Below the pieces are notes generated by a model, which saw only the letters and a list, made by a program, of their open reading frames with translations, did no database searches and was not told the DNA's origin. Positions 4,712-32,000 of a DNA stretch of 32,000 nucleotides are shown here, piece by piece. Origin of the DNA: Geotalea uraniireducens Rf4. GTDB taxonomy: Bacteria > Desulfobacterota > Desulfuromonadia > Geobacterales > Geobacteraceae. Where the stretch lies: the NCBI RefSeq assembly GCF_000016745.1, contig NC_009483.1, positions 4,140,001 to 4,172,000 of the forward strand, given 5' to 3'. How positions within the stretch are numbered: the stretch's first letter is position 1; every line of letters begins with the position of its first letter. The position numbers and the translations under genes were made by a program.

Positions 4712-4734
4712 ATAGTGATTTCTCCTTTGTAGGA

Positions 4735-5745: not shown

Positions 5746-5929
5746 GATGCCAGCTTATCGTGAGAATGCTTGTGGCACAATGACAAAAAACAGGAAATTT
5801 CGGCCAAATATGGAGGAGAGGAAATATGGGGGAGAGGTCAGGGTTAAACCGCAAAGAAACGAATTTTGGCGGCTCTTTCACCTCATTCGCCCTGCTCCCG
5901 GCGGTTTCTGCTTTCCAGTGCGGCTATCC

Positions 5930-6553
5930 TCAGATCCGCCTCTCCAGGCTCTCGGGATAGGGGTACTCCATGTGTCGTGCGGTCGAGCGGGCGATCTCCT
6001 CGCCGTAGTATTCCGCGGTCACCAAAAGCGCCAGGTCGATGCCGGCCGAGATGCCGGCCGAGGTGAACAGATTCCCGTCCCGTACCACGTGCAGCCGCTC
6101 CTCCACCATTACATCCGGGAACGATTCCCGCATCCAGCCAAGCGACTTCCAGTGGGTCGTGGCATGCCGCCCGGCCAGCAGTCCGGCCTTGCCCAGCAGC
6201 ATGGAGCCGGTGCAGACCGAGGTGAGGGTTTTCACCTCCCTGGCCCTTTCTGCGATCCAGGCCAGAAGCCGCTCGTTGTTGATCTCTCGCCGCGTACCCC
6301 AGCCGCCCGGCACCAGCAGGATGTCCAGCGGCGGGCAGTCCGCAGTGGTCACATCCGGCAGCACCCGCATCCCCCCGCTGGTCCTGATAGCGTCGGCCTT
6401 TTCCGCCACCAGCAGGACATGGAATGGGGACGGTTCCTCCCTGCGCCGCTCCTCGTTCAGCCGCACCGAGCAGAAGACCTCGTAGGGGCCGCAGTAGTCC
6501 AGCACTTCCACATCGTCGAAGATCAGTATGCCGACCTTTTTTCGCTCCTGCAT
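5930..6553 (-). CDS. DJ-1/PfpI family protein (second paralog)
   Basis: Start trimmed to the ATG at 6553 (MQERKKVGILIFDDVEVLD). The track's start at 6790 would overlap the upstream gene. Motifs SVCTGSMLLGKAGLL and ATTHW are present. Confidence 0.88.
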   Translation of the reverse strand: MQERKKVGILIFDDVEVLDYCGPYEVFCSVRLNEERRREEPSPFHVLLVAEKADAIRTSGGMRVLPDVTTADCPPLDILLVPGGWGTRREINNERLLAWIAERAREVKTLTSVCTGSMLLGKAGLLAGRHATTHWKSLGWMRESFPDVMVEERLHVVRDGNLFTSAGISAGIDLALLVTAEYYGEEIARSTARHMEYPYPESLERRI

Positions 6554-6587
6554 GATCACCCTCCTTTGCTTGGCCTGATTGCGCCCC

Positions 6588-7607
6588 TTAGGCAAGATCG
6601 ACCCCGCTTTGATTTTGTAGCCGTTCCACGCTTCGCTGATACCCTTTTTCACTGTTGTAGCCGCGTTCGCCGAACGGCTGCAGCTTCTCCAGCCAATGCA
6701 GCTCCAGTGCGTCCAAAGACTGCTCGATAGTATCTCCCGGCTCCGGTTTGTCCAGAACGGCAAGCACGGAAAACTCGAAACTGTCCGCACCGTATTGGTT
6801 CAGATCCTTTTGCAGCTCCCTGTTGAAGACGATCTTCCCCATCCGTAACTGAAACAGCCTGCTGTTGCGAGTCCCGTCAAGATTTTTGCTGCTGCCGACA
6901 TAGATTCTTCCGTTTGCCTTGTTCCTGATCTGGTATACCCCCATCTCGGGGGAGTTCTGCTTATAGTCCCGTTTGATTTCCGCGCGGTTGGTCACGTTCT
7001 CCGAACCTTTCCCGTTCTGCGACGGCAAAGCCTGTTGCCCTGCCTGATCGCCGGCTTTTTTCTTCCGCCAGTAAGTTGCACCTTCCCTGCGGATCAGACT
7101 CTCATCCACCAGCAGGCGGCGGATGGTGCAGTAGTCGTCGAAAAGCGGGATGATGAGCCCGGTTACCTCCTGCTCGCTGTAGCGGCGCTCCGGCTCAAAG
7201 CGTGCGGTAAACTGTTCCAGCACGATGAGCCGCTTTTTGTGCTGCGCAGGCAACTTCTCCAGCCTGCCGTGGCGGAAGAACGACTCCAGCACCTTGCGCC
7301 GGAACTCCTCCATTCGCCCGTCCTGTAGCTCCTTGCCGATAGTGGGGGCCGAAACGATCTCCCGCAACGTGGTGTCGAATATGGCGTCGTTTGCCTCGAT
7401 GACAACGTAGTACTGCTCCTTGCGGCTGCTGACGAGACCCGCCTGTTCCAGCTTTTTCAGGTGGAAAGAGACGGTCGAAGGGGCAAGGGCGTGGCGTCTG
7501 GCGATCTCCTCCACATATTGGGAGCTCTCCAGAAGGGAGTTGACAATTGCCAGCCGCGACTGATCCGCAAGGGCCTTCATGATGGCAATGCTCTGATCGG
7601 TTTTCAT
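6588..7607 (-). CDS. ArsR-type HTH / DUF2087-like / GIY-YIG nuclease-domain fusion protein
   Basis: 339 aa. The N-terminus LADQSRLAIVNSL...VEEIARRHALAPSTVSFHLKKLEQAGLV is an ArsR/SmtB HTH. The middle region (RLEKLPAQHKKRLIVLEQFTARFEPERRYSEQEVTGLI) looks like DUF2087. The C-terminus GVYQIRNKANGRIYVGSSKNLDGTRNSR...FEFSVL is a GIY-YIG core. Confidence 0.8.
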   Translation of the reverse strand: MKTDQSIAIMKALADQSRLAIVNSLLESSQYVEEIARRHALAPSTVSFHLKKLEQAGLVSSRKEQYYVVIEANDAIFDTTLREIVSAPTIGKELQDGRMEEFRRKVLESFFRHGRLEKLPAQHKKRLIVLEQFTARFEPERRYSEQEVTGLIIPLFDDYCTIRRLLVDESLIRREGATYWRKKKAGDQAGQQALPSQNGKGSENVTNRAEIKRDYKQNSPEMGVYQIRNKANGRIYVGSSKNLDGTRNSRLFQLRMGKIVFNRELQKDLNQYGADSFEFSVLAVLDKPEPGDTIEQSLDALELHWLEKLQPFGERGYNSEKGYQRSVERLQNQSGVDLA

Positions 7608-7881: not shown

Positions 7882-9048
7882 ATGATGGAACCGAATGAGT
7901 TTGAATTGCGTAAATTCGTCGCTCCCGAATTTATCTTCGGTATCGATGCCCGGAAATTGGCCGGCCGCTATGCGAAAAACTTCGGCGCCCGCAAGGTGCT
8001 GGTGGTGACCGACCCGGGAGTGACTGCGGCCGGATGGGCGGACGACGTCTCAGCTTACCTGAGGGAAGAAGGTCTGGAATATGCCGTCTATTCTTCGGTC
8101 ACCAGCAATCCCAAGGCAGATGAAGTCAATGCCGGGGCAGAACTGTATCGACGGGAAAGGTGCAACGCCATTGTCGCGGTCGGGGGAGGCAGTCCGATGG
8201 ATTGCGCCAAGGGGATCGGCATTGTCAGTTCCAACAAGAAGAATGTCACCGAATTCGAGGGGGTGGACAAGGTGGAATTTCCCAGTCCGCCATTGATCTG
8301 CATTCCTACCACTGCCGGCTCTTCCGCTGACGTTTCCCAGTTCGCCATCATCACGGATACCCGAAGAAAGGCAAAAATTGCCATCATCAGCAAGATGGTC
8401 GTCCCCGATGTCGCCCTGATCGATCCGGTGACCACTACCACAATGCCCCCGGAGCTTACGGCCTGTACGGCAACTGATGCCCTCTGCCATGCCATCGAAG
8501 CGTTTGTCTCCACGGCCCATTCGCCGATCACCGACGTGCACGCTTTACAGGCGATACGCCTCATTACGAGGAATCTGCTGCCGACGCTAAAAGAGCCGGA
8601 CAACATTGTGCTGCGCGGCAGGATGATGCTGGCAAGCCTGGAGGCGGGACTGGCATTTTCCAATGCCAGCCTGGGAGCAGTTCATGCGCTGGCACACAGC
8701 CTGGGCGGACTCCTGGACTGCCCCCACGGCGAATGCAATGCAATTCTTCTTCCTTACGTCATTGACTTCAACTTCGATACTGTCCCGGACCGTTACCGGG
8801 AGATCGGGAGAATGATGGGGCTGGAGGTGAGCGGCATGGCGCCGGCCCAGGTAAGATCGGCCATCACATCTGCAATCAATCGCATGAATGAGGCCACTGG
8901 AATTTCCTACACCCTCAGCCAGTTGGGTGTTAAAGAAAGCGACATCCCCGAACTTGCCGAAAAAGCGATCAACGACGCGTGCATCTTCACCAATCCGCGC
9001 CAGCCGACACGGCAGGATATCGAGGCCATCTATGAAAAAGCCCTCTGA
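7882..9048 (+). CDS. iron-containing (group III) alcohol dehydrogenase
   Basis: 388 aa. It has GGGSPMDCAKGI and metal-binding His motifs (ALCHAIEAF, GAVHALAHSLGG, PHGECNA). Confidence 0.93.
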   Translation: MMEPNEFELRKFVAPEFIFGIDARKLAGRYAKNFGARKVLVVTDPGVTAAGWADDVSAYLREEGLEYAVYSSVTSNPKADEVNAGAELYRRERCNAIVAVGGGSPMDCAKGIGIVSSNKKNVTEFEGVDKVEFPSPPLICIPTTAGSSADVSQFAIITDTRRKAKIAIISKMVVPDVALIDPVTTTTMPPELTACTATDALCHAIEAFVSTAHSPITDVHALQAIRLITRNLLPTLKEPDNIVLRGRMMLASLEAGLAFSNASLGAVHALAHSLGGLLDCPHGECNAILLPYVIDFNFDTVPDRYREIGRMMGLEVSGMAPAQVRSAITSAINRMNEATGISYTLSQLGVKESDIPELAEKAINDACIFTNPRQPTRQDIEAIYEKAL

Positions 9049-10264
9049 TGCCCAGCAAAACTGGAGCGCCGAGCGGGAAAAGATCATAGGGCTAGGCGAA
9101 CGCTCACTGCGGAAAACCTACTATCCCGAACTTCAGCAAAAACTCGATGAACTGGAGCGGTTCAGGGCACTGCTGGACCAGAGCAACGACTGCATTTTTC
9201 TCCTTGAGGCTGCAACCCTCACCTTTGTCGATGTCAATGAGTCCGCCTGCCGTCAGCTGGGCTGTTCCCGCGAGGAGTTCATTTCCTTTCCTCTTGGAAA
9301 TTTTCTGCCGAAGGAAGCGACGGCAAGGGTGGAGAATCTGGTTTCTTCAGGACCTGCCCAGGGGTGGGACCAGGACACGATAACCACCCAAATGTGCAAA
9401 TGTTCGGGAGAAAAGCTTCCGGTCGAAATCACCATCCGCCTGGTCACCTTCAACAAGATTCTGTACGGCGTGGCAGTGGCCCGTGACATTACCGAACGGA
9501 AACGGGCGGAAAAGGCGCTCCTGGAAAACTCCAGGATGCTGCGGGACATGGAACTCGCCCGACAGATTCAGCTCTCCCTTCTGCCGACCGCTCCGCCGAA
9601 ACTGCCCGGCGTCCTGCTCGCCGGATGCTGTGTGCCCGCCACCCATGTGGGAGGCGACTATTACGACTACTATGAGCGCGAAAACGGCGTAGTGGATATG
9701 GTCATCGCAGATGTTTCAGGCCACAGTATCGGTGCTGCCCTGATGACGGCAGAAGCCAGATCGGTTCTGCACGCCGAGGTTCAGTCATTCAGCCATACCG
9801 GAGATATCCTCGCATCGCTCAATGAGATACTCTACAATGATCTTAATCAGGCGGAGCTTTTCATAACCCTCTTCTATGTCAAATATGACACTCTCACCCA
9901 TACTCTTACCTATTCGAACGCCGGTCACGTCTCCCCGTTGCTCACCCGCAACTCCGGAGCAACATGCCTGAAACTGGATGCCGAAGGGCTCATCCTGGGA
10001 GTCAAAAAGGGGGTGTCCTTCGAAGAAAAGCAGCTCCGGATGGAGAAAGGTGACCTCCTCTTCCTTTACACAGACGGCGTCACCGAATCCCGGAACAGCG
10101 CAGGAGAACTGTTTGGCCTTGGCAGGCTGTGCGACCTCATAAATGCCCGGCATGCGGAACCGCCCCAGGCGATTATCGACGCCGTGCTTGAGGATGTTTC
10201 GGCATTTACCGGCACATCCGCACTGGAAGACGATGTGACCATGGTCGCCATGAAGGTGGTCTGA
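9032..10264 (+). CDS. PAS sensor / PP2C (SpoIIE, RsbU-like) serine phosphatase
   Basis: Start set at the ATG at 9032 (MKKPSDAQQNW), which overlaps the ADH 3' end by 17 nt. The N-terminal PAS domain ends at ARDITERKRAE. The PP2C core carries GGDYYDY, ADVSGHS and LYTDGVTE. Confidence 0.88.
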   Translation: MKKPSDAQQNWSAEREKIIGLGERSLRKTYYPELQQKLDELERFRALLDQSNDCIFLLEAATLTFVDVNESACRQLGCSREEFISFPLGNFLPKEATARVENLVSSGPAQGWDQDTITTQMCKCSGEKLPVEITIRLVTFNKILYGVAVARDITERKRAEKALLENSRMLRDMELARQIQLSLLPTAPPKLPGVLLAGCCVPATHVGGDYYDYYERENGVVDMVIADVSGHSIGAALMTAEARSVLHAEVQSFSHTGDILASLNEILYNDLNQAELFITLFYVKYDTLTHTLTYSNAGHVSPLLTRNSGATCLKLDAEGLILGVKKGVSFEEKQLRMEKGDLLFLYTDGVTESRNSAGELFGLGRLCDLINARHAEPPQAIIDAVLEDVSAFTGTSALEDDVTMVAMKVV

Positions 10265-11814: not shown

Positions 11815-12108
11815 TCATTGACCCACGTCTATTTCCCCATCAACCTTGTATCGATCACGCTTCAAGACCGGAATCAAACTCGCGGTTTCGACGGGACGCC
11901 CCCATTTTACGCGGACTTCCCTGACCACCAGGTACATGAGCTCATCCTCCGGCACCTTGGTCAGCGCTGCGTAACCGGGATGAATGAGCTTCTCGCCGGC
12001 CTGTTCGAACCGAATCAGGAGGTTTCCCTCCTTGGCCGGATTCACTACGCTTCCTATCCCCCACGACGGCATGGCCGCATGCCTTACCAGATCCCCTTTC
12101 TTGAACAT
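11815..12108 (-). CDS. 97-aa hypothetical protein (N-terminal DUF3553-like/SH3-like motif)
   Basis: The N-terminus is MFKKGDLVRHAAMPSWGIGSVV...LLIRFEQAGEKLI. An AGGGGA SD precedes it. It is the first ORF downstream of a Moco-type riboswitch and its terminator. Confidence 0.7.
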   Translation of the reverse strand: MFKKGDLVRHAAMPSWGIGSVVNPAKEGNLLIRFEQAGEKLIHPGYAALTKVPEDELMYLVVREVRVKWGRPVETASLIPVLKRDRYKVDGEIDVGQ

Positions 12109-12289: not shown

Positions 12290-12318
12290 TGCAGCGGAAA
12301 CGGTTCTGACGGAGGGTG

Positions 12319-12417
12319 TTCTCCTTTTCAAAAGGAAGGCGCAGCCGTTTCCGGCAGCACCCGTTGGCCGCGCACCGTGAGAGGGTTGCCCTGGTGGGTA
12401 CGGCGGCTCGGAGAGCC
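12319..12417 (-). promoter_or_regulatory. Moco/Tuco-type riboswitch aptamer (copy 1)
   Basis: The minus-strand RNA reads GGCUCUCCGAGCC...GGCCAACGGGUGCUGCCGGAAACGGCUGCGCCUUCCUUUUGAAAAGGAGAAC. It shares the blocks CUCCGAGC, GGCC-A-GGGU, a GAAA-tetraloop hairpin and GCCUYCC...AAAGGAGAA with copies 2 and 3. These copies sit upstream of classic Moco-regulon genes. Confidence 0.8.
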
Positions 12418-12449
12418 GACAATTTATTCAGTTACAGATCCTGGGTCTT

Positions 12450-22182: not shown

Positions 22183-22204
22183 TGAACGTTTTGCAACGCT
22201 GCGG

Positions 22205-22303
22205 TTTCTCCTTTCCAAAAGGGAGGCGCTGCCGTTTCCGGCAGAACCCATAGGCCGTGCGCCATCAGGTACAAACCTTTTAGGCGCTACAGCTCGGAGA
22301 GCG
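22205..22303 (-). promoter_or_regulatory. Moco/Tuco-type riboswitch aptamer (copy 2)
   Basis: The minus-strand RNA reads GCUCUCCGAGCUGUAGCGCC...GGCGCACGGCCUAUGGGUUCUGCCGGAAACGGCAGCGCCUCCCUUUUGGAAAGGAGAAA. It lies upstream of moaE-tupABC-moeA-moaC-moaB. Confidence 0.85.
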
Positions 22304-22347
22304 TCAGTTTCCCGTCCGGGTTCAGCGGATGGATACTGACATGTGGG

Positions 22348-22413: not shown

Positions 22414-23211
22414 TCAGCTATAGCCGAGGCGGGCGGAAACTTCAGCGGCGCCGGTCCTGACCAGTGGAACCAGCTCTCCAGCAATGCGCTCTGCGGTAAA
22501 ACGCATGACCGGTCCGGAAATGCTGAGCGCTCCGACAACTCTCTTGGTATAGTCGCGAATGGGCGCGCTGATGCACCTGACACCCACGTCAAGCTCTTCA
22601 TCGTCAATGGCGTATCCCTGCGCCACCACTTGCAGGAGTTGCCTCTGCAACTCCTCCCGGTTGACAATGGTGTGCGGGGTGCAACGCTCCAATTCACTGG
22701 CAGGAAGGTGCTGCACCAGCTCCTCGGCTGCCATGGCGGCGAGATGCACCTTGCCCGCAGCAGTGCAGTATGCGGGGAGCCGCGCCCCGACCCGTGGGAC
22801 CACCCGGACGGGCAAATCGGATTCAACCGCGTCCAGATAAATGATATGTGCATCCTGTAGCAGCGCCACATAACTGGTTTCATGGCAGTGAGCCGTCAGC
22901 GTTTCCAGTACCGGCTTGGCCTGGCGCAACAGCCCCATCTGCCTGATCATGGTCTGCCCCAGTTCCAGGTTTTTCAGACCGAGGCGATAGCTGCCCGTGG
23001 ACCGGTTCTGCTCGATATAGTTATGCGACTCAAGGGTAGCCAGCAACCTGAATACATTGTTCTTGTGGAGATCCAGGCGTTTGGAGAGCTCGGTGACGCC
23101 AAGCTCCACCACGTCGCCATGGAACTGCTCCAGGAGGTCAAGGGCATGGATAACGGTCTGAATGATATAACTCGACTTCTCTTTTTTCATTATGGTTCTA
23201 ATGGTAGTCAT
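22414..23211 (-). CDS. IclR family transcriptional regulator
   Basis: 265 aa. It has an N-terminal wHTH (VTELSKRLDLHKNNVFRLLATLE) and a C-terminal IclR effector domain (GVRCISAPIRD). The start overlaps the upstream ORF by 4 nt. Confidence 0.92.
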   Translation of the reverse strand: MTTIRTIMKKEKSSYIIQTVIHALDLLEQFHGDVVELGVTELSKRLDLHKNNVFRLLATLESHNYIEQNRSTGSYRLGLKNLELGQTMIRQMGLLRQAKPVLETLTAHCHETSYVALLQDAHIIYLDAVESDLPVRVVPRVGARLPAYCTAAGKVHLAAMAAEELVQHLPASELERCTPHTIVNREELQRQLLQVVAQGYAIDDEELDVGVRCISAPIRDYTKRVVGALSISGPVMRFTAERIAGELVPLVRTGAAEVSARLGYS

Positions 23212-23849
23212 ACCTCGATTTCATGGAAATTAACGGCCAGACATACCGTTGCGCCGGGGGGAAAGAGCTCCCCGCTCTGCAACAGGGCTGGCCCAACCGC
23301 TCTGCCGTTGAGGAATGCCTTAGCGCACCCCTGCCAGAAGGAAGCTGGTTTGCCGGCAAAAAAATCCGTCAGCTCGGACGGGCCCAGAATCATGCCGCGT
23401 CGGAGAAAGTCCGGTCCAAGCTCGGGAAGGAGGAGGTTGAAGAGCTTGACGCGGACCGTGGCGATCCGGTCAGGTACGTCGGCAGCGGTTTCCTGGTAGG
23501 TGATCCCGCCGCGCATGGCGGCGTAATACCCGCCGCGCCGCATGGTGGCCCCGACCAGCCCCGGCATCGCCCCGGAAAGGGCGATAACTGCCCCTTCCCT
23601 GATGACCGCCCTGTTCACGTCGTCTATGGGACGGCTGTCGAGAAAGATCGTTGTGATCCGCCGCGCCACGTAATCGGGAGAAAGGCCCCATTGAAGGCTC
23701 AGAAGCTTATCCAGGGTGCAGCCGACGCGGGCCACGACGCCGAAGCCCTGTTGCAGTATCGGTAAGAACTCCCCAAACTGGTCGGATTTCATTTCCAGAT
23801 CGAGGTATGTATGGGAAACCTCTGTCAGCTGTTCATCCTCTTTAGACAC
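23208..23849 (-). CDS. 213-aa hypothetical protein (no family recognised)
   Basis: The ORF has a GTG start and is tightly packed between the MoaD-like gene (21-nt gap) and IclR (4-nt overlap). Its composition looks like a real protein. Two segments weakly resemble ThiS/MoaD-type beta-grasp C-termini (IFLDSRPIDDVNRAVIREGAVIALSGAMPG; FLNGRAVGPALLQSGELFPPGATVCL). Confidence 0.65.
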   Translation of the reverse strand: MSKEDEQLTEVSHTYLDLEMKSDQFGEFLPILQQGFGVVARVGCTLDKLLSLQWGLSPDYVARRITTIFLDSRPIDDVNRAVIREGAVIALSGAMPGLVGATMRRGGYYAAMRGGITYQETAADVPDRIATVRVKLFNLLLPELGPDFLRRGMILGPSELTDFFAGKPASFWQGCAKAFLNGRAVGPALLQSGELFPPGATVCLAVNFHEIEV

Positions 23850-24146: not shown

Positions 24147-24365
24147 TCACAGGTCGCAGGGAAGGTGAATCAGTTCGCAGCTGCGACACTTTCCATACCG
24201 GGCCGGGAGAAAAAGAACATTGACCGAGAGACATTTTTTGCACTGCCAGAACTTGAAGTCCGAGACCTCCCGACCGGCAAGTTGGCTGAAATACCAGCGA
24301 TAGTAGGAATCCCAGTCATACTCCGGGCGTTGCTCGGCTTTTTCCACCAGTTGTTCCAGCAGCAT
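24147..24365 (-). CDS. 72-aa Cys-rich (CxxC...CxxC, zinc-ribbon-like) hypothetical protein
   Basis: Translation: MLLEQLVEKAEQRPEYDWDSYYRWYFSQLAGREVSDFKFWQCKKCLSVNVLFLPARYGKCRSCELIHLPCDL. The SD is a G-run (rc of C8 at 24368-24375). Confidence 0.55.
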   Translation of the reverse strand: MLLEQLVEKAEQRPEYDWDSYYRWYFSQLAGREVSDFKFWQCKKCLSVNVLFLPARYGKCRSCELIHLPCDL

Positions 24366-24395
24366 GTCCCCCCCCTGATCGGCCCATTAAAACGA

Positions 24396-24412
24396 CGGGG
24401 CGAAATGCCCCG
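24396..24412 (-). terminator. short GC hairpin with U-rich tail, candidate attenuating terminator after AOR
   Basis: The minus-strand RNA reads CGGGGC-AUUUC-GCCCCG followed by UCGUUUUAAU. The stem is only 6 bp. Confidence 0.4.
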
Positions 24413-24470
24413 CCTGATCCAGCATACTGCCAAGGCGTTCAGATTTGCGTCAGGTCGGCCCCGCCCGCAG

Positions 24471-24481: not shown

Positions 24482-24508
24482 GCGGAGGCCCCTCACCCGG
24501 CCTTCGGC

Positions 24509-24567
24509 CACCCTCTCCCATGAAGGGAGAGGGTGAACTGTATTCCTTCCCCCTTTGGGGGAGGGAT
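24509..24567. repeat. REP-like GC-rich palindromic units
   Basis: CACCCTCTCCC-ATGAA-GGGAGAGGGTG has a perfect 11-bp stem. It is followed by CCTTCCCCC-TTT-GGGGGAGGG. This resembles the intergenic palindromic filler common in GC-rich genomes. Confidence 0.5.
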
Positions 24568-24642
24568 AAGGAGAGGGACGCTACGCCGCACAAGGCGGGG
24601 TCCGAGGACGGGACCGAGATGGCGTAAATATGGACGCCTATA

Positions 24643-26379
24643 CTACCAGTTGAATACTTCGTCCAGCTCCTCATCCTTCATCATGAAAGTGAGGTTGTGT
24701 GGTGCAACCGGCTCGTTGTAGAAGAAGCGCGGCAACCGATCGTGGTGCTTGGTGAAGCCGGCCCGGGTGTTGAAGTCCCGCTCGGCGGAGAGTACCTTTT
24801 TCCCCAGCGCCACCACGTCGTCGCCGGTCATGGTGATGCCGTAGAAGGAACCGAGCATGTCCAGGAGCGCCTGGAAGGTTTCCGGCTGGTCCAAGATGGC
24901 AAAGGCGATGAAGAGGCACATGCCGGTGGAGTCGATGGCGGCGGTGGCGATCTGCAGGTTCCGCGACAGTTCTATCTGCCCCTCGGTCTTGAGCGGATCA
25001 ACGTCGCCCCCCACCTTGAGGATGTTGGTGGCGATGGCGTATCCGGCCGTGTGGTCGGCCCCCTGGGTGGTCGTGGCATAGGTGACGCCGATTCCCTGGA
25101 CTGCGCGCGGATCGTAGGCAGGCAGGGCCTGGTCCTTGACCACCGGCACCCGCTCGACGCCGAACACCTTGCCGGTCACCGCGGCGCCGCTGCCAAGCAC
25201 CCGCCCGAGCGGCGTCCCCTTGCCGACCTCTTCCATCAGCCGGATAGCGCCTTCGCGGTCGCCGAACTCGATAATCCCCGCATCCATGGCCACGCCGATG
25301 GTGACCCCCATCTCGATTGTGTCGACGCCGATGTTGTCGTCCATGAAGTCGAGCCGGGCGACGGTGTCCAGGTCGTCGATGCCGCAGTGGCCGCCATGGG
25401 ACCAGACCGTCTCGTACTCGGGCTGTTTGGTCAGGTAATGACCGTCTTTATCGTTGTATATCCCCGAGCACTGGATGACGCAGCCGCGATGGCAGCCGTG
25501 GGTGGCGGTGCCGCCCCGCTTGATTTCCAGTTCCGCCTGGGCTTCGCCGGAGAGCTTGGACGAGCCGGCGAACTGGCCGGTCTTGAAGTTATTGGTTGGA
25601 TAGCCGCCCGCCTCGTTGAGCACGTTGGTGAGGACGTTGGTGCCGTATGCGGGGAGCCCTTCGCCGGTGACCGGGTGCTTGCGCAGCCCTTCGACGAATT
25701 TGCGGTTGGCGTCACGGTATTTTTCCGGGTCCTTGGGAGGACGCATAGTCATGCCTGCGTCATCGAGGATGATCGCCTTGACCCTCTTGGCGCCCATTAC
25801 CGCTCCCACTCCGCCACGGCCGCAGTGGCGGGTCGGCCGCAGTTCGGGGTCGGTGCAGGCGATGGAGGCTGCCAGCAGTTTCCGCTCTCCGGCAGTGCCG
25901 ATGGACATGTAGGCCACCTTGTCGCCGTATTCCTGGCGCAGCTTCTCGATGACCGGGTAGTTGTCCAGCTCCTTCAGGCTGTTGTCGACGATGACCTTGA
26001 TGCCGTCCTTGTTGATATGGATCTTGTAGAGGTCGTCACCAGCCGGCTTCCCTTCGAGGATGACGGCGGCATAGCCGAGCCGAGCCAGCACCTGGGCCGC
26101 CTGGCCGCCAGCGTTGGATTCCTTGATGGTGCCGGTCAGCGGGCTCTTGCAGCCGACCGACAGCCGGCCGGTCATGGAGCCGGTGGTGCCGCTCAGCATG
26201 CCGGGGGCGATGACCAGCTTGTTCTCCGCTCCCAGCGGATGACAGAGGGGGTGCACTTCCTTGGCGATGATGAGGGACGTCATCGCCCTGCCGCCGAGTC
26301 CGGCATACTCGCCGACTTCTTCAAACGTTACCATGGGGCCGCCTGCCGCCCCCATGTCGATCCTGGCAATCTTTTCCAT
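24643..26379 (-). CDS. aor: tungsten-containing aldehyde:ferredoxin oxidoreductase (AOR family)
   Basis: 578 aa. The N-terminus is MEKIARIDMGAAG...GGR. The 4Fe-4S Cys motif is HGCHRGCVIQC. It also carries TYATTTQGADH and DSTGMCLF. Confidence 0.95.
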   Translation of the reverse strand: MEKIARIDMGAAGGPMVTFEEVGEYAGLGGRAMTSLIIAKEVHPLCHPLGAENKLVIAPGMLSGTTGSMTGRLSVGCKSPLTGTIKESNAGGQAAQVLARLGYAAVILEGKPAGDDLYKIHINKDGIKVIVDNSLKELDNYPVIEKLRQEYGDKVAYMSIGTAGERKLLAASIACTDPELRPTRHCGRGGVGAVMGAKRVKAIILDDAGMTMRPPKDPEKYRDANRKFVEGLRKHPVTGEGLPAYGTNVLTNVLNEAGGYPTNNFKTGQFAGSSKLSGEAQAELEIKRGGTATHGCHRGCVIQCSGIYNDKDGHYLTKQPEYETVWSHGGHCGIDDLDTVARLDFMDDNIGVDTIEMGVTIGVAMDAGIIEFGDREGAIRLMEEVGKGTPLGRVLGSGAAVTGKVFGVERVPVVKDQALPAYDPRAVQGIGVTYATTTQGADHTAGYAIATNILKVGGDVDPLKTEGQIELSRNLQIATAAIDSTGMCLFIAFAILDQPETFQALLDMLGSFYGITMTGDDVVALGKKVLSAERDFNTRAGFTKHHDRLPRFFYNEPVAPHNLTFMMKDEELDEVFNW

Positions 26380-26428
26380 ACGTTTACTCCTTTCCCTTTT
26401 TTGAATGTTGTGGCTTCAAGCCACGTTA

Positions 26429-26525
26429 ATTCTCCTTTCCAAAGGGAGGCGTCGCAGTTTCCCGCGAAACCCGTTGGCCTCTTTCCTTGGGGGGATGCCC
26501 TGTAGGTGAGGAGGCTCGGAGAAAA
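26429..26525 (-). promoter_or_regulatory. Moco/Tuco-type riboswitch aptamer (copy 3)
   Basis: The minus-strand RNA reads UUCUCCGAGCCUCCUCACCUACAGGGCAUCCCCCCAAGGAAAGAGGCCAACGGGUUUCGCGGGAAACUGCGACGCCUCCCUUUGGAAAGGAGAAU. The GAAA hairpin covaries with copy 2 (UCGCGG/CUGCGA versus CUGCCG/CGGCAG). It lies upstream of AOR. Confidence 0.8.
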
Positions 26526-26535
26526 ACAGGTGTGG

Positions 26536-27651
26536 TCATACAGTCCAATGAAACGCTATCATCACTGCCGTCTGGTTCAAATGGCCGATGAACTGCTCGC
26601 CGTAGGTGCTGAAACCGATGGTGGGAATGCCTGCGAACAGCTCCCCGTATTTGTCGCTCTGACCTTTTTGCTCAAGCTCCATGGTGCGCAGGATGCAATT
26701 GAAGGTAATGATGCCGGAGATGCCCGCAAGTTCCGATCTTGCCGCTTCGAGCGCCTTTTTCGTGTCGGCGATGATGTCCGTCGATTCCAGCAGATTCAGT
26801 TCCATGCCTTCCTTCACGCCGCAGCAGAAGTGCATGCTGTTCCCCATGATTCTCTGCGGGCTGAGCACGTACGGATCGCCTTCGAAGACAATCCCGACCG
26901 GATTGCTCATAAAGCGATTCGGGGCATCGGCAACTGAAGTGCCCACAGCCTCCGCATAGGCAATGGCAGCCGGTTTGTGGTTGAACTCCAGGATTTCCCG
27001 TTTCGCCTCGTTCACCTTGGTCACCAGCAGTTTTTGCGGCAAGGGGGAGAAACTTTGCGTCTTGATGAACGAAAACGGGCCCGCCGGCTCCAGCACCGCC
27101 AGCACTGCCGCATTGGTGTAACTCTTGCCGTTGGCGTAAACATGGGTGGCGGAAAATTTCAGATCGTCTCCCGCTGAGCCGCCAACAAAGTTTATGTTGG
27201 TCAAATCGCCGATCCGGTCTATTACCCGCTCTTCCGCGCCGCTCAGGCCATCGATGAGCAAGATTCCCAGATACTTCTTGCGGTCCATTGCCGCCGGCGG
27301 CGTTTGAAAATGCTGCTCGAAAGCATCGAACGCCTTGTCCACCGGGTTCCCGGTCGTGATGTTTTCAAGCACCTCAACCTTTACCCCATTGAGGGAATCC
27401 CGGCTGAATGCCATGGCAACAACGGAATGGTTGAGCATCCTGCCGGAAACGATCTCCCCCGCGGTCGAACAGCCGAAGGTCACGGCATCGGGGAAGGCGT
27501 TCCCCATCAAACGGGCGGCGCGCTCGGGATCAAATATGGAGGAAGCGAAGAACACGAGCATTTTCGCTTCAAACCCTCCCAGCTGTTGCCGGATGTCCGC
27601 AACAGCTTCGCGTATGTCACTCTCAACGGAAAAGGCTGTTTTTATGTTCAC
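26536..27651 (-). CDS. FIST (FIST_N + FIST_C) sensory domain protein
   Basis: 371 aa. The layout MLVFFASS...FGCSTAGEI...INFVGGSAGD...GFSTYGEQ is typical of FIST proteins. No output domain is present. Confidence 0.8.
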   Translation of the reverse strand: MNIKTAFSVESDIREAVADIRQQLGGFEAKMLVFFASSIFDPERAARLMGNAFPDAVTFGCSTAGEIVSGRMLNHSVVAMAFSRDSLNGVKVEVLENITTGNPVDKAFDAFEQHFQTPPAAMDRKKYLGILLIDGLSGAEERVIDRIGDLTNINFVGGSAGDDLKFSATHVYANGKSYTNAAVLAVLEPAGPFSFIKTQSFSPLPQKLLVTKVNEAKREILEFNHKPAAIAYAEAVGTSVADAPNRFMSNPVGIVFEGDPYVLSPQRIMGNSMHFCCGVKEGMELNLLESTDIIADTKKALEAARSELAGISGIITFNCILRTMELEQKGQSDKYGELFAGIPTIGFSTYGEQFIGHLNQTAVMIAFHWTV

Positions 27652-27666
27652 AAGCGGCTCCTGTTA

Positions 27667-27870
27667 TCATTCCGTATTCAGTTTGTATTCGTTGATCATC
27701 TCTTGCAGTTTCCCCATCACAACCGGGTCGTCATCGGATTGAGCGGTGTAATTTTTAGGATCGATACCCTTCAGGATCAGTTTGATCTTTACGGTTCCTT
27801 CCAGAATTTTGTCGCCATGCGCCCGTTGAGTGACGATGGTATCGATCAGCCGCTTGATATTCCCGGCCAT
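27667..27870 (-). CDS. 67-aa hypothetical protein
   Basis: Translation: MAGNIKRLIDTIVTQRAHGDKILEGTVKIKLILKGIDPKNYTAQSDDDPVVMGKLQEMINEYKLNTE. A GAGGAGA SD precedes it. Its stop is 15 nt before the FIST start. No family recognised. Confidence 0.6.
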   Translation of the reverse strand: MAGNIKRLIDTIVTQRAHGDKILEGTVKIKLILKGIDPKNYTAQSDDDPVVMGKLQEMINEYKLNTE

Positions 27871-27959
27871 CTCGTGTCTCCTCTGTCTTTATCTGACTGT
27901 TACCCAAGCGACGTTGCCGTTGGGTTTTTCGATGATCCGTTTAATCCGACCCGCCTTGA

Positions 27960-29393
27960 CTACGTGGACAGCTCCATCTGCCTGAGGATCACTACGCGGT
28001 AGCTGGCGAACGTCTTGCGCCGCAGACATCCCCAGAAGACGCCGGCCCCGTAAGCGATCTGTTCCAGAAGGTAGATGACGGCAAAACCGACAAACGACAG
28101 GCGCGGCTTTCTGACCGAATAATCGACCCCGGCAGCACACGCCAGCACAGCAACTGGCACGGCGCAGAACAGGGGAACGATCAAGGCGATGGCGATGAGT
28201 ACCGGGGCGTAGTATCGCACCAGGTGGTAGCAGAGGTAATAGACCAGACTGCCGAGGGCCCGCAGGCGACCCGCAAGAAGAGCAGAAAGGCCGATAGGGA
28301 GTCGCCGGCGGGCAAACCGCAACCGGACGACCATCGCGTCGGCCGCGAGCACCCCCGCTGCCGGCAGTAACGACCAGCAGCCCGTAAACGGAGCCATGAG
28401 GCAGAGTGCCAGGACAAAGGCCAGCAGAGGAGGGATAATCATCCGCTTCCGTCGGTGGGGATGGAGGAGCTGGAGCAGCCCTTCGGAGGTGCCGTAGTCG
28501 AAACGGCGGGACATGAATGAACGGAGGGTGCTGCGGTGCTCGTGGTAAACACGGCCCAGAGGGAGGTAAGCGATGGTCCATCCCTCGTCCCGCAGGCGCC
28601 AGGTCAGGTCAACGTCCTCACCCACATGCATGGCATCGTCGAAACCGTCGACGCTGAGGAAAATGGTCCGCCGCACCAGCATGTTGCAGCTCGGCAGATA
28701 GAACGTATCGTCCCCCCCACTTCCGGAGCGCTCCCGGGAACCGAGGGAAAGGCTGGACATGACCGCCTCGTAGCGGTCGACGGCGGAAGTAGTGCACATT
28801 CCGTCCACCATCCCCCCAACCGCCGCCGTTTTGGGATCGTTGAAGAGCGGTATCAGTTCCGCAAGCCACTTCTCCGACGCGGTACAGTCCGAATCGATGA
28901 AGGCGAGTATCTCTCCCCGTGCGTTCGCAGCCCCGACGTTGCGGGCCGCTGCCGGCCCCCGTCCCGTGCCGCCTGATGGTACGACGAGGGCTCCGAATTC
29001 CCGCGCAACCAGCGGGGAGTCGTCCCGGCTTCCGTCATCCACGACGATTACCTGGATCATCTCCTGCGGATAGTCGAGCTGGGCGAGGGAAGCAAGGCAG
29101 CGTTTCAACTCTTCTGCCCGGTCCTTGACCGGGATGACGACACTGACAGTGGGAAGTGCCGCCGGTTGCTCCTGAACGCTTCGAAGCCGCTCCACGAATC
29201 CCTTTGCCGCCAGCTGCTCCAGAACTTCCGCTTCGCCGGCAGTTGCGGCCCTCAGCGATCCATCCATCCCGAGTCTGACCAGTTCCGCCAGGGAACGGTT
29301 AAGGCGCAGGACGCAGAGGGGAGCCTTTGCCACGAGGAAGCTTCCCCCGTCCCGTTCCACCAGTTCCACATGCTGCGCCAGTCGATAGATCAT
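27960..29393 (-). CDS. GT2 glycosyltransferase with N-terminal PqqD-like region and C-terminal polytopic membrane domain (MftF-like)
   Basis: 477 aa. Motifs VSVVIPVKDRAEEL, VVDDGSRDDS, FIDSDC and HVGEDVDLTWRL mark the GT-A core. About 170 C-terminal residues are hydrophobic, ending in EQIAYGAGVFWG. The architecture matches my recollection of mycofactocin-system glycosyltransferases (TIGR03965). Confidence 0.8.
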   Translation of the reverse strand: MIYRLAQHVELVERDGGSFLVAKAPLCVLRLNRSLAELVRLGMDGSLRAATAGEAEVLEQLAAKGFVERLRSVQEQPAALPTVSVVIPVKDRAEELKRCLASLAQLDYPQEMIQVIVVDDGSRDDSPLVAREFGALVVPSGGTGRGPAAARNVGAANARGEILAFIDSDCTASEKWLAELIPLFNDPKTAAVGGMVDGMCTTSAVDRYEAVMSSLSLGSRERSGSGGDDTFYLPSCNMLVRRTIFLSVDGFDDAMHVGEDVDLTWRLRDEGWTIAYLPLGRVYHEHRSTLRSFMSRRFDYGTSEGLLQLLHPHRRKRMIIPPLLAFVLALCLMAPFTGCWSLLPAAGVLAADAMVVRLRFARRRLPIGLSALLAGRLRALGSLVYYLCYHLVRYYAPVLIAIALIVPLFCAVPVAVLACAAGVDYSVRKPRLSFVGFAVIYLLEQIAYGAGVFWGCLRRKTFASYRVVILRQMELST

Positions 29394-29466
29394 CTTGATA
29401 ACCTCTGACTACCATGAAAAGCTTTCGCCACAGGACTTACAGATCCAAACGGTCCGAGAGGACTCA

Positions 29467-30357
29467 TCACGCCTTCTCCACCAAAAGCCCCTCTTCACCA
29501 AGTATCCGCCAGAGCCCTTCTGCCGTATCATCGGTCGAAAGAGCATGCTGTTTTCCCTCACGGGCCTTGATCCCGCCGGAGAGGAGCGAGAGGATACGCT
29601 CGAAAGCGGGAAGTTTTGCATCCGGAGTCACCACCCGCACCGGGTCGGGACGCGGGACACCGAACTCGGCTGTCGTGAGATATGCGCCCGTGGCGCCGAT
29701 CTCCCAGAAGGGGAGCCCCAGGTCCGCCAGTCCCCACGTTTCAACGTTTGCGGTCAGCGCCTCGGTAACAGCCTCGACGGAAGGATAGCGGGGCGACCGG
29801 CTTTCCTCGAAGAGAATCGTAGATGGGAACGGTACGGTGACCACCTGCCTGCCACCCCGATCCCCTTTGCGCAGCACTTCAACCCATTCGGTTTTCAGGG
29901 TGAGAGAGACGGCGGCGGCAATGCTTGGCATGCCGTTCACGGCAGCGGCCAGGGCCGGCACCGGATCGTTACCCCGGTCAGCCAGGCGGTTACCGGTGAA
30001 GACGAGGGTTGGCGCAAGAATGGTCATGATCCGGGAGAGGACCCTGGCATCAGCCACGGCGTCCCCCCCCTCCAGGCCATGATCCCAGAACCGTATCCCC
30101 CGGTCAGCCCCCATGGAGAAGGCAAGCCGCAAGGTGTCGTCAAGACGGGCGGGACCGACTGCAAGAACGGTCACCGTGGCGCCGACTCTGTCTTTAAGGC
30201 AGAGCGCCTCTTCCAGGGCCGCAAGATCGGCCGGGTTCGGTACGCGCCTTAAGCCCCGGTCGCTGATGCCAGCGCCCCGCGTGATGACGCGGGCCGGGGG
30301 GCGAGGATCACTGCTCTCCCGAAGGAGGACGAGTATGTTGAGTTTTTTCTGTGGCAT
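29467..30357 (-). CDS. electron transfer flavoprotein beta-subunit-like (EtfB/FixA-like) protein
   Basis: 296 aa. It carries NILVLL...NPADLAALEEALCLKD...VTVLAVGP...LRLAFSMGADRGI...LVFTGNRLADRGNDPVPALAAAVNGMP. No EtfA-like gene is adjacent within the window. Confidence 0.75.
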   Translation of the reverse strand: MPQKKLNILVLLRESSDPRPPARVITRGAGISDRGLRRVPNPADLAALEEALCLKDRVGATVTVLAVGPARLDDTLRLAFSMGADRGIRFWDHGLEGGDAVADARVLSRIMTILAPTLVFTGNRLADRGNDPVPALAAAVNGMPSIAAAVSLTLKTEWVEVLRKGDRGGRQVVTVPFPSTILFEESRSPRYPSVEAVTEALTANVETWGLADLGLPFWEIGATGAYLTTAEFGVPRPDPVRVVTPDAKLPAFERILSLLSGGIKAREGKQHALSTDDTAEGLWRILGEEGLLVEKA

Positions 30358-30374
30358 GGGTAACTCCTGAAATT

Positions 30375-30440
30375 AATTTTGAATTATGAATGTTGAATTT
30401 TGAATTAAATTCAAAATTAAGAGTTCAAAATTCAAAATTG
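30375..30440. repeat. AT-rich heptad-phased inverted-repeat array (AATTTTG-type units)
   Basis: In a single 7-nt register it reads AATTTTG AATTATG AATGTTG AATTTTG AATTAAA TTCAAAA TTAAGAG TTCAAAA TTCAAAA. The central dyad AATTTTGAATT-A-AATTCAAAATT is a perfect 11 bp. It fills the gap between the fixX stop (30444) and the SD of the EtfB-like gene (30365-30369). Confidence 0.85.
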
Positions 30441-30443
30441 CCT

Positions 30444-30722
30444 TTACGTCATTCGGTACGCGACGCCGAATCCTCCCCGCGGGTAGCGCCAGCGGGTGAA
30501 GGCGTTCTTGTGGCAGACCACATAGCAGGTGCCGCATTCCAGGCAGCCGTCATGGACGAAGGTCATTATTTGCTCCTCCTCCGACCAGGTGTAGCAACGG
30601 GCGGGACAGGAGTTGGTGCAGCCGCGATTGTCGCAGCCGACGCAGACCGCAGTATCGAGAACGATATGGGGTTCCCGGTCGATGGTGAAACTGGTGAAGT
30701 CGAATATTTCGTCTATGTTCAC
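30444..30722 (-). CDS. fixX: FixX-type ferredoxin-like protein
   Basis: 92 aa. The Cys pattern is CVGCDNRGCTNSCPARC...CLECGTC. It overlaps fixC by 4 nt. Confidence 0.9.
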   Translation of the reverse strand: MNIDEIFDFTSFTIDREPHIVLDTAVCVGCDNRGCTNSCPARCYTWSEEEQIMTFVHDGCLECGTCYVVCHKNAFTRWRYPRGGFGVAYRMT

Positions 30723-32000
30723 AATGCCCTCCAGGCGGTCAGGGCGTCGGAGATGGCGTTCTTCAGGCCGACCCTCTCCTTCACCTCCCGCAGGATGAGT
30801 TTGGGGATGCTCATCTTTGGGGTGCCGTCGATGCGGTAGATGTGTTCCATCATGCTGCAGACCAGTTCCGGGTACTCATTGTAGATCCGCTCGATGTGGA
30901 GCATCTTGGGAGCGTTTCTGAACCCCTTCAGGTCCTTCATTACCCAGCTCAGGTCGAGCCGTTCCTTGTAGCGTTTGAGCGTTTTCAGGGAAAAGTCCTG
31001 CTGCTGATGCGCCTCGATGACGGTCTTTCCCGCCAGGATGCCGGAGTGGGAGGCCAGGTTGATCCCCTCCAGGTTGACGCCGGTGGCATTACAGAGCGCA
31101 GCGGCGTCGCCGGCGACCAGAATGCCGTTGCCGGCCAGTTCCGGAATCATGTTGTAGCCACCTTCGGGGATGACGTGTGCCGAATATTCCTGCAACCGTC
31201 CCCCCCGCACCAGCTTGGCCACCTGCGGTTGCTCCATGAACTCGTTGAGCAGGTCGTAGGGGGTCTTGCCACTGGTGCGCAGACTGGCCAGGTGAAACAC
31301 CAGGCCGATCGAAAGCGAATCGTAGTTGGTGTAGAGGAAACCGCCACCGCGAACACCGCCGGTGCAGCCGACGAACTCATTGGCAAAGCCCTGGTCCCGA
31401 ACCAGCCCAAAGCGATCGTCGATCATCTCTCGCGGCATGTCGATCAGCGCCTTGACACCCACAGCCATCTGATCGGCATTGAACTTGGGACGGCGCAATC
31501 CGGCCTTCTGGGCCGTGAACGACAGTACACCGTCGGCGGCGATCACCACCGGGGCCTTGATCTGTCCCGTGCGTCCCAGGATGGAGACCCCGGCGATCCG
31601 GTCGTTCTTGTAGATCAGGTCGTCCACCGTGGAACGGGTGATCAGGGTGGCGCCGGCTTTGACGGCCTCTTCGGCCAACCAGCGATCAAAGCGGGGGCGG
31701 AAGACGGTATAACCGTTGTAGGGGGCGCGGTCGAAGTTGGTGGTTTCATGCTGTACGTTGAAGCTGGCCTCCGCCGTCATGAAGGTTGTCCCCTTCTTGG
31801 CGATGTGCCGCTCCAGGGGCGCCTTGGTCCAGAAGTCGGGCATGAGCTCTTCGATGGAGGTCATGCGGTGCAGGATGCCGCCGAACATGTTCTTTTCGCC
31901 CGGAAATGTGCCGCGCTCAACAAGGGCCACGTCCAGCCCGGCCCGCGCCATGGTCAATGCGGCCGAGGAGCCGGCCGGTCCCGCACCGACTACGATTGCC
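30719..32000 (-). CDS. fixC: FixC-type FAD-dependent Etf:quinone oxidoreductase (N-terminus beyond window)
   Basis: The frame stays open to the window edge. The upstream residues AIVVGAGPAGSSAALTMARAG form the GxGxxG FAD fold, so the true start lies just beyond 32000. The rest matches FixC/EtfQO-like proteins. Confidence 0.9.
   Translation of the reverse strand, partial: AIVVGAGPAGSSAALTMARAGLDVALVERGTFPGEKNMFGGILHRMTSIEELMPDFWTKAPLERHIAKKGTTFMTAEASFNVQHETTNFDRAPYNGYTVFRPRFDRWLAEEAVKAGATLITRSTVDDLIYKNDRIAGVSILGRTGQIKAPVVIAADGVLSFTAQKAGLRRPKFNADQMAVGVKALIDMPREMIDDRFGLVRDQGFANEFVGCTGGVRGGGFLYTNYDSLSIGLVFHLASLRTSGKTPYDLLNEFMEQPQVAKLVRGGRLQEYSAHVIPEGGYNMIPELAGNGILVAGDAAALCNATGVNLEGINLASHSGILAGKTVIEAHQQQDFSLKTLKRYKERLDLSWVMKDLKGFRNAPKMLHIERIYNEYPELVCSMMEHIYRIDGTPKMSIPKLILREVKERVGLKNAISDALTAWRAL

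Follow-up and report, generated by a model that had tools for sequence, protein, structure and literature searches.

A variant mycofactocin operon in Geotalea uraniireducens Rf4 with an embedded flavoprotein module that may connect the cofactor to menaquinone

What does a mycofactocin-type glycosyltransferase do in an anaerobic metal-reducing bacterium, among genes for electron transfer and with no other mycofactocin gene in view? The question is raised by one end of a 32,000-nucleotide stretch of the Geotalea uraniireducens Rf4 chromosome (hereafter the window), where a tight co-directional run of minus-strand genes, read from position 32000 down to 24643, encodes FixC- and FixX-like proteins, the small subunit of an electron transfer flavoprotein (ETF), a family 2 glycosyltransferase (GT2), a 67-aa protein and a FIST-domain protein, and then leads through a riboswitch into an aldehyde:ferredoxin oxidoreductase (AOR). 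In the biosynthesis of mycofactocin, a redox cofactor, MftB and MftC turn the C-terminal Val-Tyr of the precursor MftA into a lactam core, and MftF, which is anchored in the membrane, glycosylates the phenol; the system of aerobic actinobacteria is the only one so far characterised in the field. A preliminary description of the window proposed an uncharacterised redox-carrier system without mycofactocin genes. We find instead that the region is the 3' part of a co-directional operon of ~8.4 kb (mftA start to mftF stop) with the order mftA-mftB-mftC-OYE2-etfA-fixC-fixX-etfB-mftF, and we are highly confident that the locus is the anaerobe-type ('variant') mycofactocin operon of Geobacteraceae. 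As an explanation of the region as a whole we lean, modestly, towards a variant mycofactocin operon that contains an electron wire for the cofactor and is followed by a separate cassette of the 67-aa and FIST genes.

The flank beyond position 32000 was provided by a 15.8-kb public contig (L001), found by exact-sequence look-up of the glycosyltransferase, whose reverse complement is identical to window positions 24490-32000 (7,511 nt, 0 mismatches) and which extends 7,393 nt further. Upstream of fixC and on the same strand this contig carries mftA, mftB, mftC, OYE2 and etfA, the first three lying 5.6-7 kb upstream of mftF in the same orientation. MftA is a 35-aa open reading frame (ORF) with the C-terminus IDGICGVY, scoring 47.4 bits against the variant-type MftA model NF040489 (cutoff 30) and 43.7 bits against TIGR03969 (cutoff 25); MftB passes TIGR03967 with 68.1 bits (cutoff 33), and MftC passes TIGR03962 with 353.1 bits (cutoff 265). 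Directly after mftC, and likewise outside the window, follows OYE2, a 653-aa FMN/Fe-S/FAD protein of the old yellow enzyme (OYE) type (TIGR03997, 1016.7 bits, cutoff 793). The 334-aa etfA product, whose gene overlaps fixC, has NF038209 (mft_etfA) as its best NCBIfam family, at 134 bits and under the cutoff of 240. The flank thus holds a short precursor, a PqqD-like gene, a radical SAM/SPASM gene and an EtfA gene, all of which the preliminary description had named as partners to look for beyond the edge. Its remark that no mftA, mftB, mftC, mftD, mftE or EtfA gene lies in the window is literally true, but it was wrong as a sign of a missing system; the genes appear absent because the window stops 17 nt inside fixC. 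Nor is EtfB the lone subunit it had been taken for, because etfA lies directly upstream of fixC and the split order etfA-fixC-fixX-etfB recurs among lineages; since this order is kept across phyla, EtfB is also no decaying duplicate beside a normal fixAB pair. Further upstream, ahead of mftA and beyond the window end (L001:68-2441), this strain alone has genes for a bacteriohaemerythrin and two HD-GYP-like proteins; they were rejected as members of the system, being conserved in no related locus.

These genes bear directly on the idea of a new redox carrier other than mycofactocin, a glycosylated peptide or small molecule that a GeoRSP radical SAM system might mature and for which the FIST protein would be a dedicated sensor. 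The idea took its strength from the position of the mft genes outside the window, and it may still appeal to the local lack of MftD and MftE, such that the end product might differ from actinobacterial mycofactocin. However, MftA with its IDGICGVY end, MftB and MftC all pass curated cutoffs, and the radical SAM protein proposed as the GeoRSP partner is the one that passes the MftC model (353 bits against a cutoff of 265), while reaching only 152.4 bits against TIGR04303 (cutoff 400). The GeoRSP identity of this protein was accordingly rejected, and the upstream mft genes refute both the 'GeoRSP' and the 'no mycofactocin' parts of the idea; moreover, most orthologous loci lack the FIST and 67-aa genes, which also occur in an operon without mft genes. 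We give a novel carrier hardly any credence.

The glycosyltransferase is of the MftF type, as the preliminary description had supposed: it scores 381.8 bits against TIGR03965 over residues 9-469 (cutoff 280), and EpsD, the next model and the best of the generic envelope GT2 families, gives no more than 122 bits. It has more than 1,500 homologues, the nearest 120 at 71-96% identity, and many of these already bear the name MftF in Geobacter, Geobacteraceae and Desulfuromonadales records. Its catalytic core matches Pfam Glycos_transf_2 (96.8 bits), and among 27 diverse homologues 40 columns are invariant and the DSD motif (D167, S168 and D169) is invariant or nearly so. Four hydrophobic peaks at residues 318-445 bear out the polytopic C-terminus that had been predicted. 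The PqqD-like N-terminus, predicted along with it, is retained as a remote homology: Pfam finds no PqqD domain in the N-terminal 80 residues even at E <= 10, and BLASTP finds nothing between this N-terminus and the MftB of the same locus, but a profile of 53 MftF N-termini aligns with an MftB profile by hhalign over 76 columns (probability 90%, E = 1.5e-6).

The features of the run, in the direction of transcription, are listed below.

30719 to >32000, minus strand: fixC-like FAD oxidoreductase of the ETF-QO/FixC family (NCBIfam and Pfam)
30444-30722, minus strand: fixX-like 4Fe-4S ferredoxin, 92 aa, overlapping fixC by 4 nt
30375-30438, minus strand: imperfect AT-rich palindrome, 64 nt (RNA fold)
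29467-30357, minus strand: etfB, ETF small (beta) subunit, 296 aa (Pfam ETF, 72.5 bits)
27960-29393, minus strand: mftF, mycofactocin glycosyltransferase, 477 aa (TIGR03965, 381.8 bits)
27667-27870, minus strand: 67-aa ORF, three-helix protein, no family assigned (17 homologues)
26536-27651, minus strand: stand-alone FIST_N+FIST_C protein, 371 aa, NosP-like, without output domain (Pfam)
26417-26533, minus strand: riboswitch for molybdenum or tungsten cofactor (Moco/Wco) ahead of AOR (Rfam RF01055, 63.3 bits, gathering score 36)
24643-26379, minus strand: AOR, tungsten-type aldehyde:ferredoxin oxidoreductase, 578 aa (Pfam AFOR_N 187.5 bits, AFOR_C 260 bits)
24394-24414, minus strand: first terminator-like hairpin after the run, with an 8-bp stem, 7 GC pairs and a T-rich tail (consensus scan)

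The packed run from fixC to the AOR riboswitch therefore stands as it was first described, including the 4-nt overlap of fixX with fixC; the palindrome after fixX is likewise present, although it measures 64 nt and not the 66 nt claimed for it. The start codon of fixC is located 17 nt past the window end, so that its first 6 codons fall outside; the complete gene, visible at L001:7377-8675, encodes 432 aa. FixC scores 332-358 bits against the NCBIfam FixC/PRK10015 models, under their cutoffs of 466 and 610, and matches Pfam ETF-QO_UQ-bd and ETF-QO_FixC_C, and FixX scores 56 bits against NF011993, under its cutoff of 166, and matches Pfam Fer4_9. The riboswitch begins 2 nt past the FIST stop codon and ends 37 nt ahead of AOR, and a consensus terminator scan found no minus-strand terminator-like site between fixC and AOR.

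How widely is this arrangement shared? Diverse MftF representatives were aligned, and a scan for MftF across one genome per species gave 80 loci for a gene census by tblastn. All seven of mftC, OYE2, etfA, fixC, fixX, etfB and mftF are present in that order in 21 loci, and at least fixC-fixX-etfB-mftF in 33, the hosts being Geobacterales/Desulfuromonadales, Anaeromyxobacter oryzae, Deferrisomatales, Syntrophorhabdales, Dehalococcoidales, metagenome-assembled genomes (MAGs) of Actinomycetota/Thermoleophilia, Rhodospirillales/Defluviicoccus, and Pelotomaculum. The neighbourhood whose conservation the preliminary description had proposed to test is therefore kept in its GT and Etf/Fix part, but most Geobacter-type loci lack its 67-aa and FIST part. 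Of all proteins of the cluster OYE2 is the best conserved, with 63-66% identity to actinobacterial versions versus 29-47% for the others. In Desulfobacterales-type loci the gap between etfA and etfB holds not fixCX but a multihaem cytochrome c and an HdrD/GlpC/TfrB-like Fe-S oxidoreductase; here the module that oxidises the ETF has been exchanged in place for a non-orthologous one. Two OYE2-like paralogues occur in Desulfobacterales-type clusters (L041:6099-8703; also L023, L032, L034, L040, L043, L046, L057, L069 and L070).

The operon type was noted in 2011 and is covered by curated annotation models, and so is already catalogued. The G. uraniireducens Rf4-type cluster of Haft 2011 (PMC3023750) shares with the present locus its Geobacteraceae host, MftA, MftB, MftC and MftF, a FadH/OYE oxidoreductase and ETF subunits; the hosts listed there are G. 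uraniireducens Rf4, Geobacter sp. M18, Pelotomaculum and Desulfotomaculum, and MftD, MftE and MftR are said to occur 'in most but not all' species (PMC3023750). Models NF040489, TIGR03997, NF038209 and TIGR04503 were built on the Rf4-type cluster, yet EtfA and EtfB of this locus fall under the cutoffs of theirs (134 vs 240 and 73.6 vs 200 bits). A literature search found no paper pairing mycofactocin with electron transfer flavoprotein, etfA/etfB/fixC, old yellow enzyme or AOR/tungsten, and none on FixCX between etfA and etfB, on the AOR linkage or on the 67-aa/FIST insert; the mycofactocin-ETF association exists only in annotation models. With the canonical actinobacterial mftABCDEF system (plus mftG, mftR and mftM) the locus has in common the precursor end ...DG(I/M)CGVY, the MftB chaperone, MftC and MftF; it differs in that no MftD, MftE, MftG or MftR was found in ~39 kb, in the five-gene flavoprotein/ETF module embedded in it, and in its anaerobic metal-reducing host.

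What, then, might the embedded module do? OYE2 aligns end to end with 2-naphthoyl-CoA reductase (NCR, 339 bits), FadH (284 bits), trimethylamine dehydrogenase (TMADH, 236 bits) and histamine dehydrogenase (225 bits), and it retains the CxxCxxC...C cluster motif and the GGGPAG FAD motif. In its third domain VCLIDYDGHQRA stands at the position of GCGGIG, the NADPH-site motif of FadH, which is matched in OYE2 by IDYDGHQRA; TMADH likewise has no glycine-rich motif there. We infer that OYE2 binds FMN, a 4Fe-4S cluster and FAD and is without an NAD(P)H-binding motif. TMADH hands electrons to an ETF, and the chain of TMADH, ETF and ETF:quinone oxidoreductase in methylotrophs offers the nearest parallel: a three-domain FMN/4Fe-4S/ADP-type flavoprotein without an NAD(P)H site, an adjacent ETF, and an ETF-QO-like FAD/Fe-S protein. 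It differs from the present module in that the catalytic and covalent-FMN residues are not kept here, the ETF-QO is split into FixC and FixX, and the presumed substrate is a glycosylated lactam cofactor and not an amine.

The closest relatives of OYE2 also suggest a quite different account, in which OYE2, ETF and FixCX would be unrelated passengers, such as an enoyl- or aryl-CoA reducing system, inside an mft cluster. NCR and FadH, the nearest solved structures, do use CoA thioesters, and what ties the module to mycofactocin is sequence and gene order. Yet at least six phylum-level lineages have the module, with its gene order unchanged, between mftC and mftF, the OYE2 clade is defined by its mycofactocin association (TIGR03997, 1016.7 bits), and the ETF-oxidising partner has been swapped while the module stayed in the cluster. 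That such genes are mere passengers seems to us decidedly improbable.

The ETF of the module can be compared with bifurcating relatives. EtfB has TIGR04503 (mft_etfB) as its best NCBIfam match, at 73.6 bits and under the cutoff of 200, and its best match in the Protein Data Bank (PDB) is 1o94_C, the beta subunit of the non-bifurcating W3A1 ETF that partners TMADH. The bifurcating signatures (A/G)(A/G)DT(W/L)ATS and DGDTAQVG, strictly conserved in four solved bifurcating ETFs, correspond to two segments that vary among all mft-linked EtfBs and read GGDAVADAR and DRGNDPVP in the EtfB of the window. Because these bifurcating-FAD segments are variable in every mft-linked EtfB, the comparison argues for an ordinary one-electron ETF that looks non-bifurcating. 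Alternatively, the module might be a bifurcating complex of the FixABCX/EtfABCX type, in which mycofactocinol or NADH would reduce menaquinone together with ferredoxin, and ferredoxin would tie the module to AOR. FixC- and FixX-like genes normally go with bifurcating FixAB/EtfAB, thermodynamics permit bifurcation from -255 mV, and a ferredoxin-dependent AOR is a conserved neighbour; the signature segments have nevertheless been replaced by variable sequence, the best structural relative of EtfB is a non-bifurcating ETF, and the gene order differs from fixABCX. Complexes of this type (e.g. that of Thermotoga maritima, 7KOE) share with the module FixC-like and FixX-like subunits alongside an ETF pair, while the module has the order etfA-fixC-fixX-etfB, an EtfB without bifurcating-FAD signatures, and an OYE-type dehydrogenase as the likely point of electron entry instead of NADH. 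We regard bifurcation here as quite unlikely.

We hypothesize that OYE2, ETF and FixCX link mycofactocin to menaquinone, standing in for MftG or for MftD, which depends on O2, and we would put belief and doubt in this mechanism at about equal weight. The four redox genes between mftC and mftF would form an electron wire for the cofactor: OYE2 would exchange hydride with (pre)mycofactocin(ol) and pass single electrons to the non-bifurcating EtfAB in the manner of TMADH and its ETF, and the ETF-QO-like FixCX would reoxidise ETF and reduce menaquinone. Mycofactocin-dependent alcohol oxidation (E0' about -255 mV) would in this way be coupled to Geobacter respiration, which is MftG's job in aerobic mycobacteria. 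The E0' of PMFT is given as -255 mV (PMC11778925), and about 25% of the genomes with MftC carry no MftG, the substitute being an acknowledged open question (PMC11778925). The module would resemble MftG in this proposed role of passing electrons from reduced mycofactocin to the respiratory chain; the families are unrelated, MftG being a single GMC enzyme of aerobes (PMC11778925), and the candidate here a multi-subunit OYE2/ETF/FixCX system of anaerobes. In broader terms, the module may be an MftG-independent route from mycofactocin to quinone, and possibly an O2-independent substitute for MftD, with OYE2-EtfAB-cytochrome c/HdrD-like as its Desulfobacterales counterpart, and it may make up, together with the tungsten AOR, a mycofactocin-based pathway of alcohol and aldehyde oxidation in Geobacter and other anaerobes; this wider view we hold tentatively, with a little more doubt than belief. 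The cluster would thereby offer a testable candidate chain, from an NAD(P)H-independent OYE flavoprotein to a non-bifurcating ETF and on to an ETF:quinone reductase, and the tungsten AOR under riboswitch control that recurs beside it suggests a way in which anaerobic metal reducers might use mycofactocin to oxidise alcohols.

Several observations weigh against the proposed wire. The chemistry of OYE2 is unreadable from homology because the catalytic residues of both candidate models differ: Cys30 (covalent FMN), Tyr60, Tyr169 and Tyr174 of TMADH are not kept, neither is the Tyr proton donor of FadH/NCR, and among the catalytic residues compared only the His aligned with TMADH His172 remains. 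The non-bifurcating call for the ETF is a matter of motif comparison alone. EtfA, EtfB, FixC and FixX are all under the NCBIfam equivalog cutoffs, their association with mycofactocin being one of synteny. MftD and MftE are found within ~10 kb of mftF by tblastn in almost none of the ETF-type loci, and their absence from this locus weakens the case that the lineage makes the keto-amide redox centre on which the wire would depend. Finally, a third class of loci has mftABC-F only (e.g. L047 and L063), with no OYE/ETF module within 10 kb, and so not every system with MftF requires the module. Loci of this third mft type (L063:11525-20083; also L048, L054 and L060) carry an SDR gene, mftA, mftB, mftC and mftF only, and downstream of mftF come genes like larE, larB and larC of the nickel-pincer cofactor, then AOR, a distant FIST gene and a PAS histidine kinase; the MftA core of this type terminates in GIY and not GVY.

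The distribution of MftD and MftE was followed by tblastn, with the MftD (TIGR03966, 692 bits) and MftE (TIGR03964, 320 bits) of a Streptomyces locus as queries. Neither was found in the window or in L001 (~39 kb together), and no GMC (MftG-type) or MftR gene was seen in the scanned window ORFs or in L001. MftD and MftE occur together only in canonical actinobacterial loci, and these (L078-L085) are without the OYE2/ETF module; Rhodospirillales ETF-type loci have an MftE-like gene and no MftD. An MftD gene with a frameshift and 69-78% identity to the Streptomyces protein (L050:12376-13544) stands ~1 kb downstream of mftF in an otherwise Geobacter-type ETF cluster from a long-read delta-proteobacterial MAG; this could be a genuine exception, the result of horizontal transfer, or a chimera of the assembly.

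At the level of loci, the mutual exclusion of MftD/MftE and the OYE2/ETF module is compatible both with the wire and with a biosynthetic role, in which OYE2-EtfAB-FixCX would be an O2-independent replacement of MftD (and perhaps MftE) that oxidatively deaminates AHDP or cleaves AHDP off MftA, with ETF and menaquinone accepting the electrons. The missing MftD and MftE genes of the window, L001 and almost all other ETF-type loci speak for this role, as do the module-free loci that have both, the Rhodospirillales loci that retain an MftE-like gene without MftD, and the MftD step itself, described as aerobic (PMC8406134) and so ill-suited to strict anaerobes. Over its full length OYE2 moreover has the architecture of two amine dehydrogenases that pass their electrons to ETF, TMADH (236 bits) and histamine dehydrogenase (225 bits). 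On the other hand, the covalent-FMN Cys, aromatic-bowl and catalytic Tyr residues of TMADH are not conserved in OYE2, whose closest solved relatives are ene-reductases (NCR, 339 bits; FadH, 284 bits); five genes, including one for a quinone reductase, seem too many for the low-flux maturation of a cofactor; mftABC-F-only loci have neither MftD/E nor the module nearby; and in L050, a locus of the Geobacter type, MftD is present besides the module. A biosynthetic role thus appears unlikely to us, though it deserves more weight than the other alternatives considered here.

If the operon is accounted for by mycofactocin and its redox module, to what do the 67-aa and FIST genes belong? The 67-aa protein is a real conserved gene product, with 17 homologues at 50-93% identity, and wherever downstream DNA was recovered a FIST gene is always next, after a gap of ~15-35 nt (15 nt in the window). 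It has no match in Pfam, NCBIfam or PADLOC; its confident AlphaFold model consists of three helices (pLDDT 85.7), for which Foldseek returned nothing from the PDB at E < 1. A likeness to the N-terminal helices of H-NOX, seen in repeated weak alignments (TM about 0.5, probability <= 0.25), was not significant and was set aside. The FIST protein matches Pfam FIST (140.6 bits) and FIST_C (76.3 bits). It aligns over its full FIST_N+FIST_C length with NosP, the FIST-domain haem sensor of NO, but scores 261 bits against NF041558, under the cutoff of 450, and it differs from NosP also in having no adjacent histidine kinase, in its 67-aa three-helix partner and in its aldehyde/alcohol context.

The pair lies between mftF and the riboswitch-AOR unit in one Geobacteraceae sublineage (L001, L004, L011, L087 and L088/89). 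Other Geobacter-type loci are without it, and in most of them the Moco riboswitch and AOR come directly after mftF. A 64-aa homologue with its FIST gene occurs elsewhere (L005:10001-11318 and L006:6904-8221) in an operon for an Fe-dependent alcohol dehydrogenase (Fe-ADH), an aldehyde dehydrogenase, an acetyl-CoA hydrolase and a SatP (YaaH) acetate channel that contains no mft genes, which suggests that the small protein and FIST are a functional pair tied to alcohol and acetate metabolism. More distant FIST genes stand beside AOR in the third cluster type (L048, L054, L060 and L063). Because the pair is missing from most mft loci and present in a non-mft alcohol/aldehyde dehydrogenase operon, FIST appears to track aldehyde/acid metabolism, and we infer that the 67-aa and FIST genes are a separate sensor-like cassette of that metabolism, outside the mycofactocin machinery. 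The earlier suggestions that FIST senses mycofactocin and that the 67-aa gene is part of the same system are not borne out by this distribution, with which a link to aldehydes and AOR fits better. Upstream of the cassette operon, L005 carries a PAS kinase and a sigma-54 regulator; the L006 contig ends short there.

The AOR itself is a recurrent neighbour. Most Geobacter-type loci have it after mftF, with 87-93% identity, and of the scanned loci 15 (L007-L086), spread over three cluster types, carry it near mftF; the number is 20 when contigs from exact protein look-up are included. A Moco riboswitch also precedes it in L007, L010, L011, L017, L020 and L028. Just downstream of AOR, a 213-aa protein (23208-23849, minus strand) without Pfam or NCBIfam match is encoded at the same place in 12 other loci at 39-55% identity, two of them of a different mft cluster type, usually with a MoaD/ThiS-like gene alongside; it may be an accessory or maturation factor of AOR. 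A 72-aa ORF at 24147-24365 is not conserved.

The AT-rich palindrome belongs to an 86-nt spacer between fixX and etfB (30358-30443, 23% GC). It folds at -21.7 kcal/mol (z = -4.2; 0/200 shuffles as stable) around the heptamers TTTTGAA/TTCAAAA. The palindromes in this spacer are unrelated among Geobacter loci, being of the TTTTGAA type in L001, L004, L010 and L050, of the GAGAGATGA type in L028 and GC-rich in L007, L011 and L017, and further loci have a spacer of just 12-58 nt. A conserved operator was therefore rejected, since orthologous spacers hold unrelated palindromes or none, and the palindrome is probably an interchangeable intercistronic RNA hairpin. The spacer is a hotspot of unrelated palindromic short-repeat hairpins among Geobacteraceae (the window, L004, L007, L010, L011, L017, L021, L028 and L050).

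The rest of the window fits a theme of alcohol and aldehyde metabolism together with tungsten and molybdenum cofactors. Three Moco/Wco riboswitches lie in the 32 kb, all on the minus strand (26417-26533, 22192-22310 and 12305-12425), preceding AOR, moaE, and a 97-aa ORF (11815-12108) downstream of an acetylating aldehyde dehydrogenase, respectively. Nearby window genes comprise moaC, moeA, moaE, moaD, a tungstate/molybdate-type (TOBE) ABC transporter, the acetylating aldehyde dehydrogenase, an ErcA-like Fe-ADH and a sigma-54 activator. The Fe-ADH (7882-9048, plus strand) passes the model for ErcA regulatory alcohol dehydrogenase-like proteins (645.6 bits, cutoff 550), and after it, overlapping on paper, comes a PAS-SpoIIE (PP2C) phosphatase ORF (8888-10264, plus strand). 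At 4115-6790 on the minus strand, three DJ-1/PfpI-family genes stand in a row beside an aldo/keto reductase, one of them fused to an AraC helix-turn-helix (HTH) domain, an arrangement suggestive of reactive-aldehyde detoxification.

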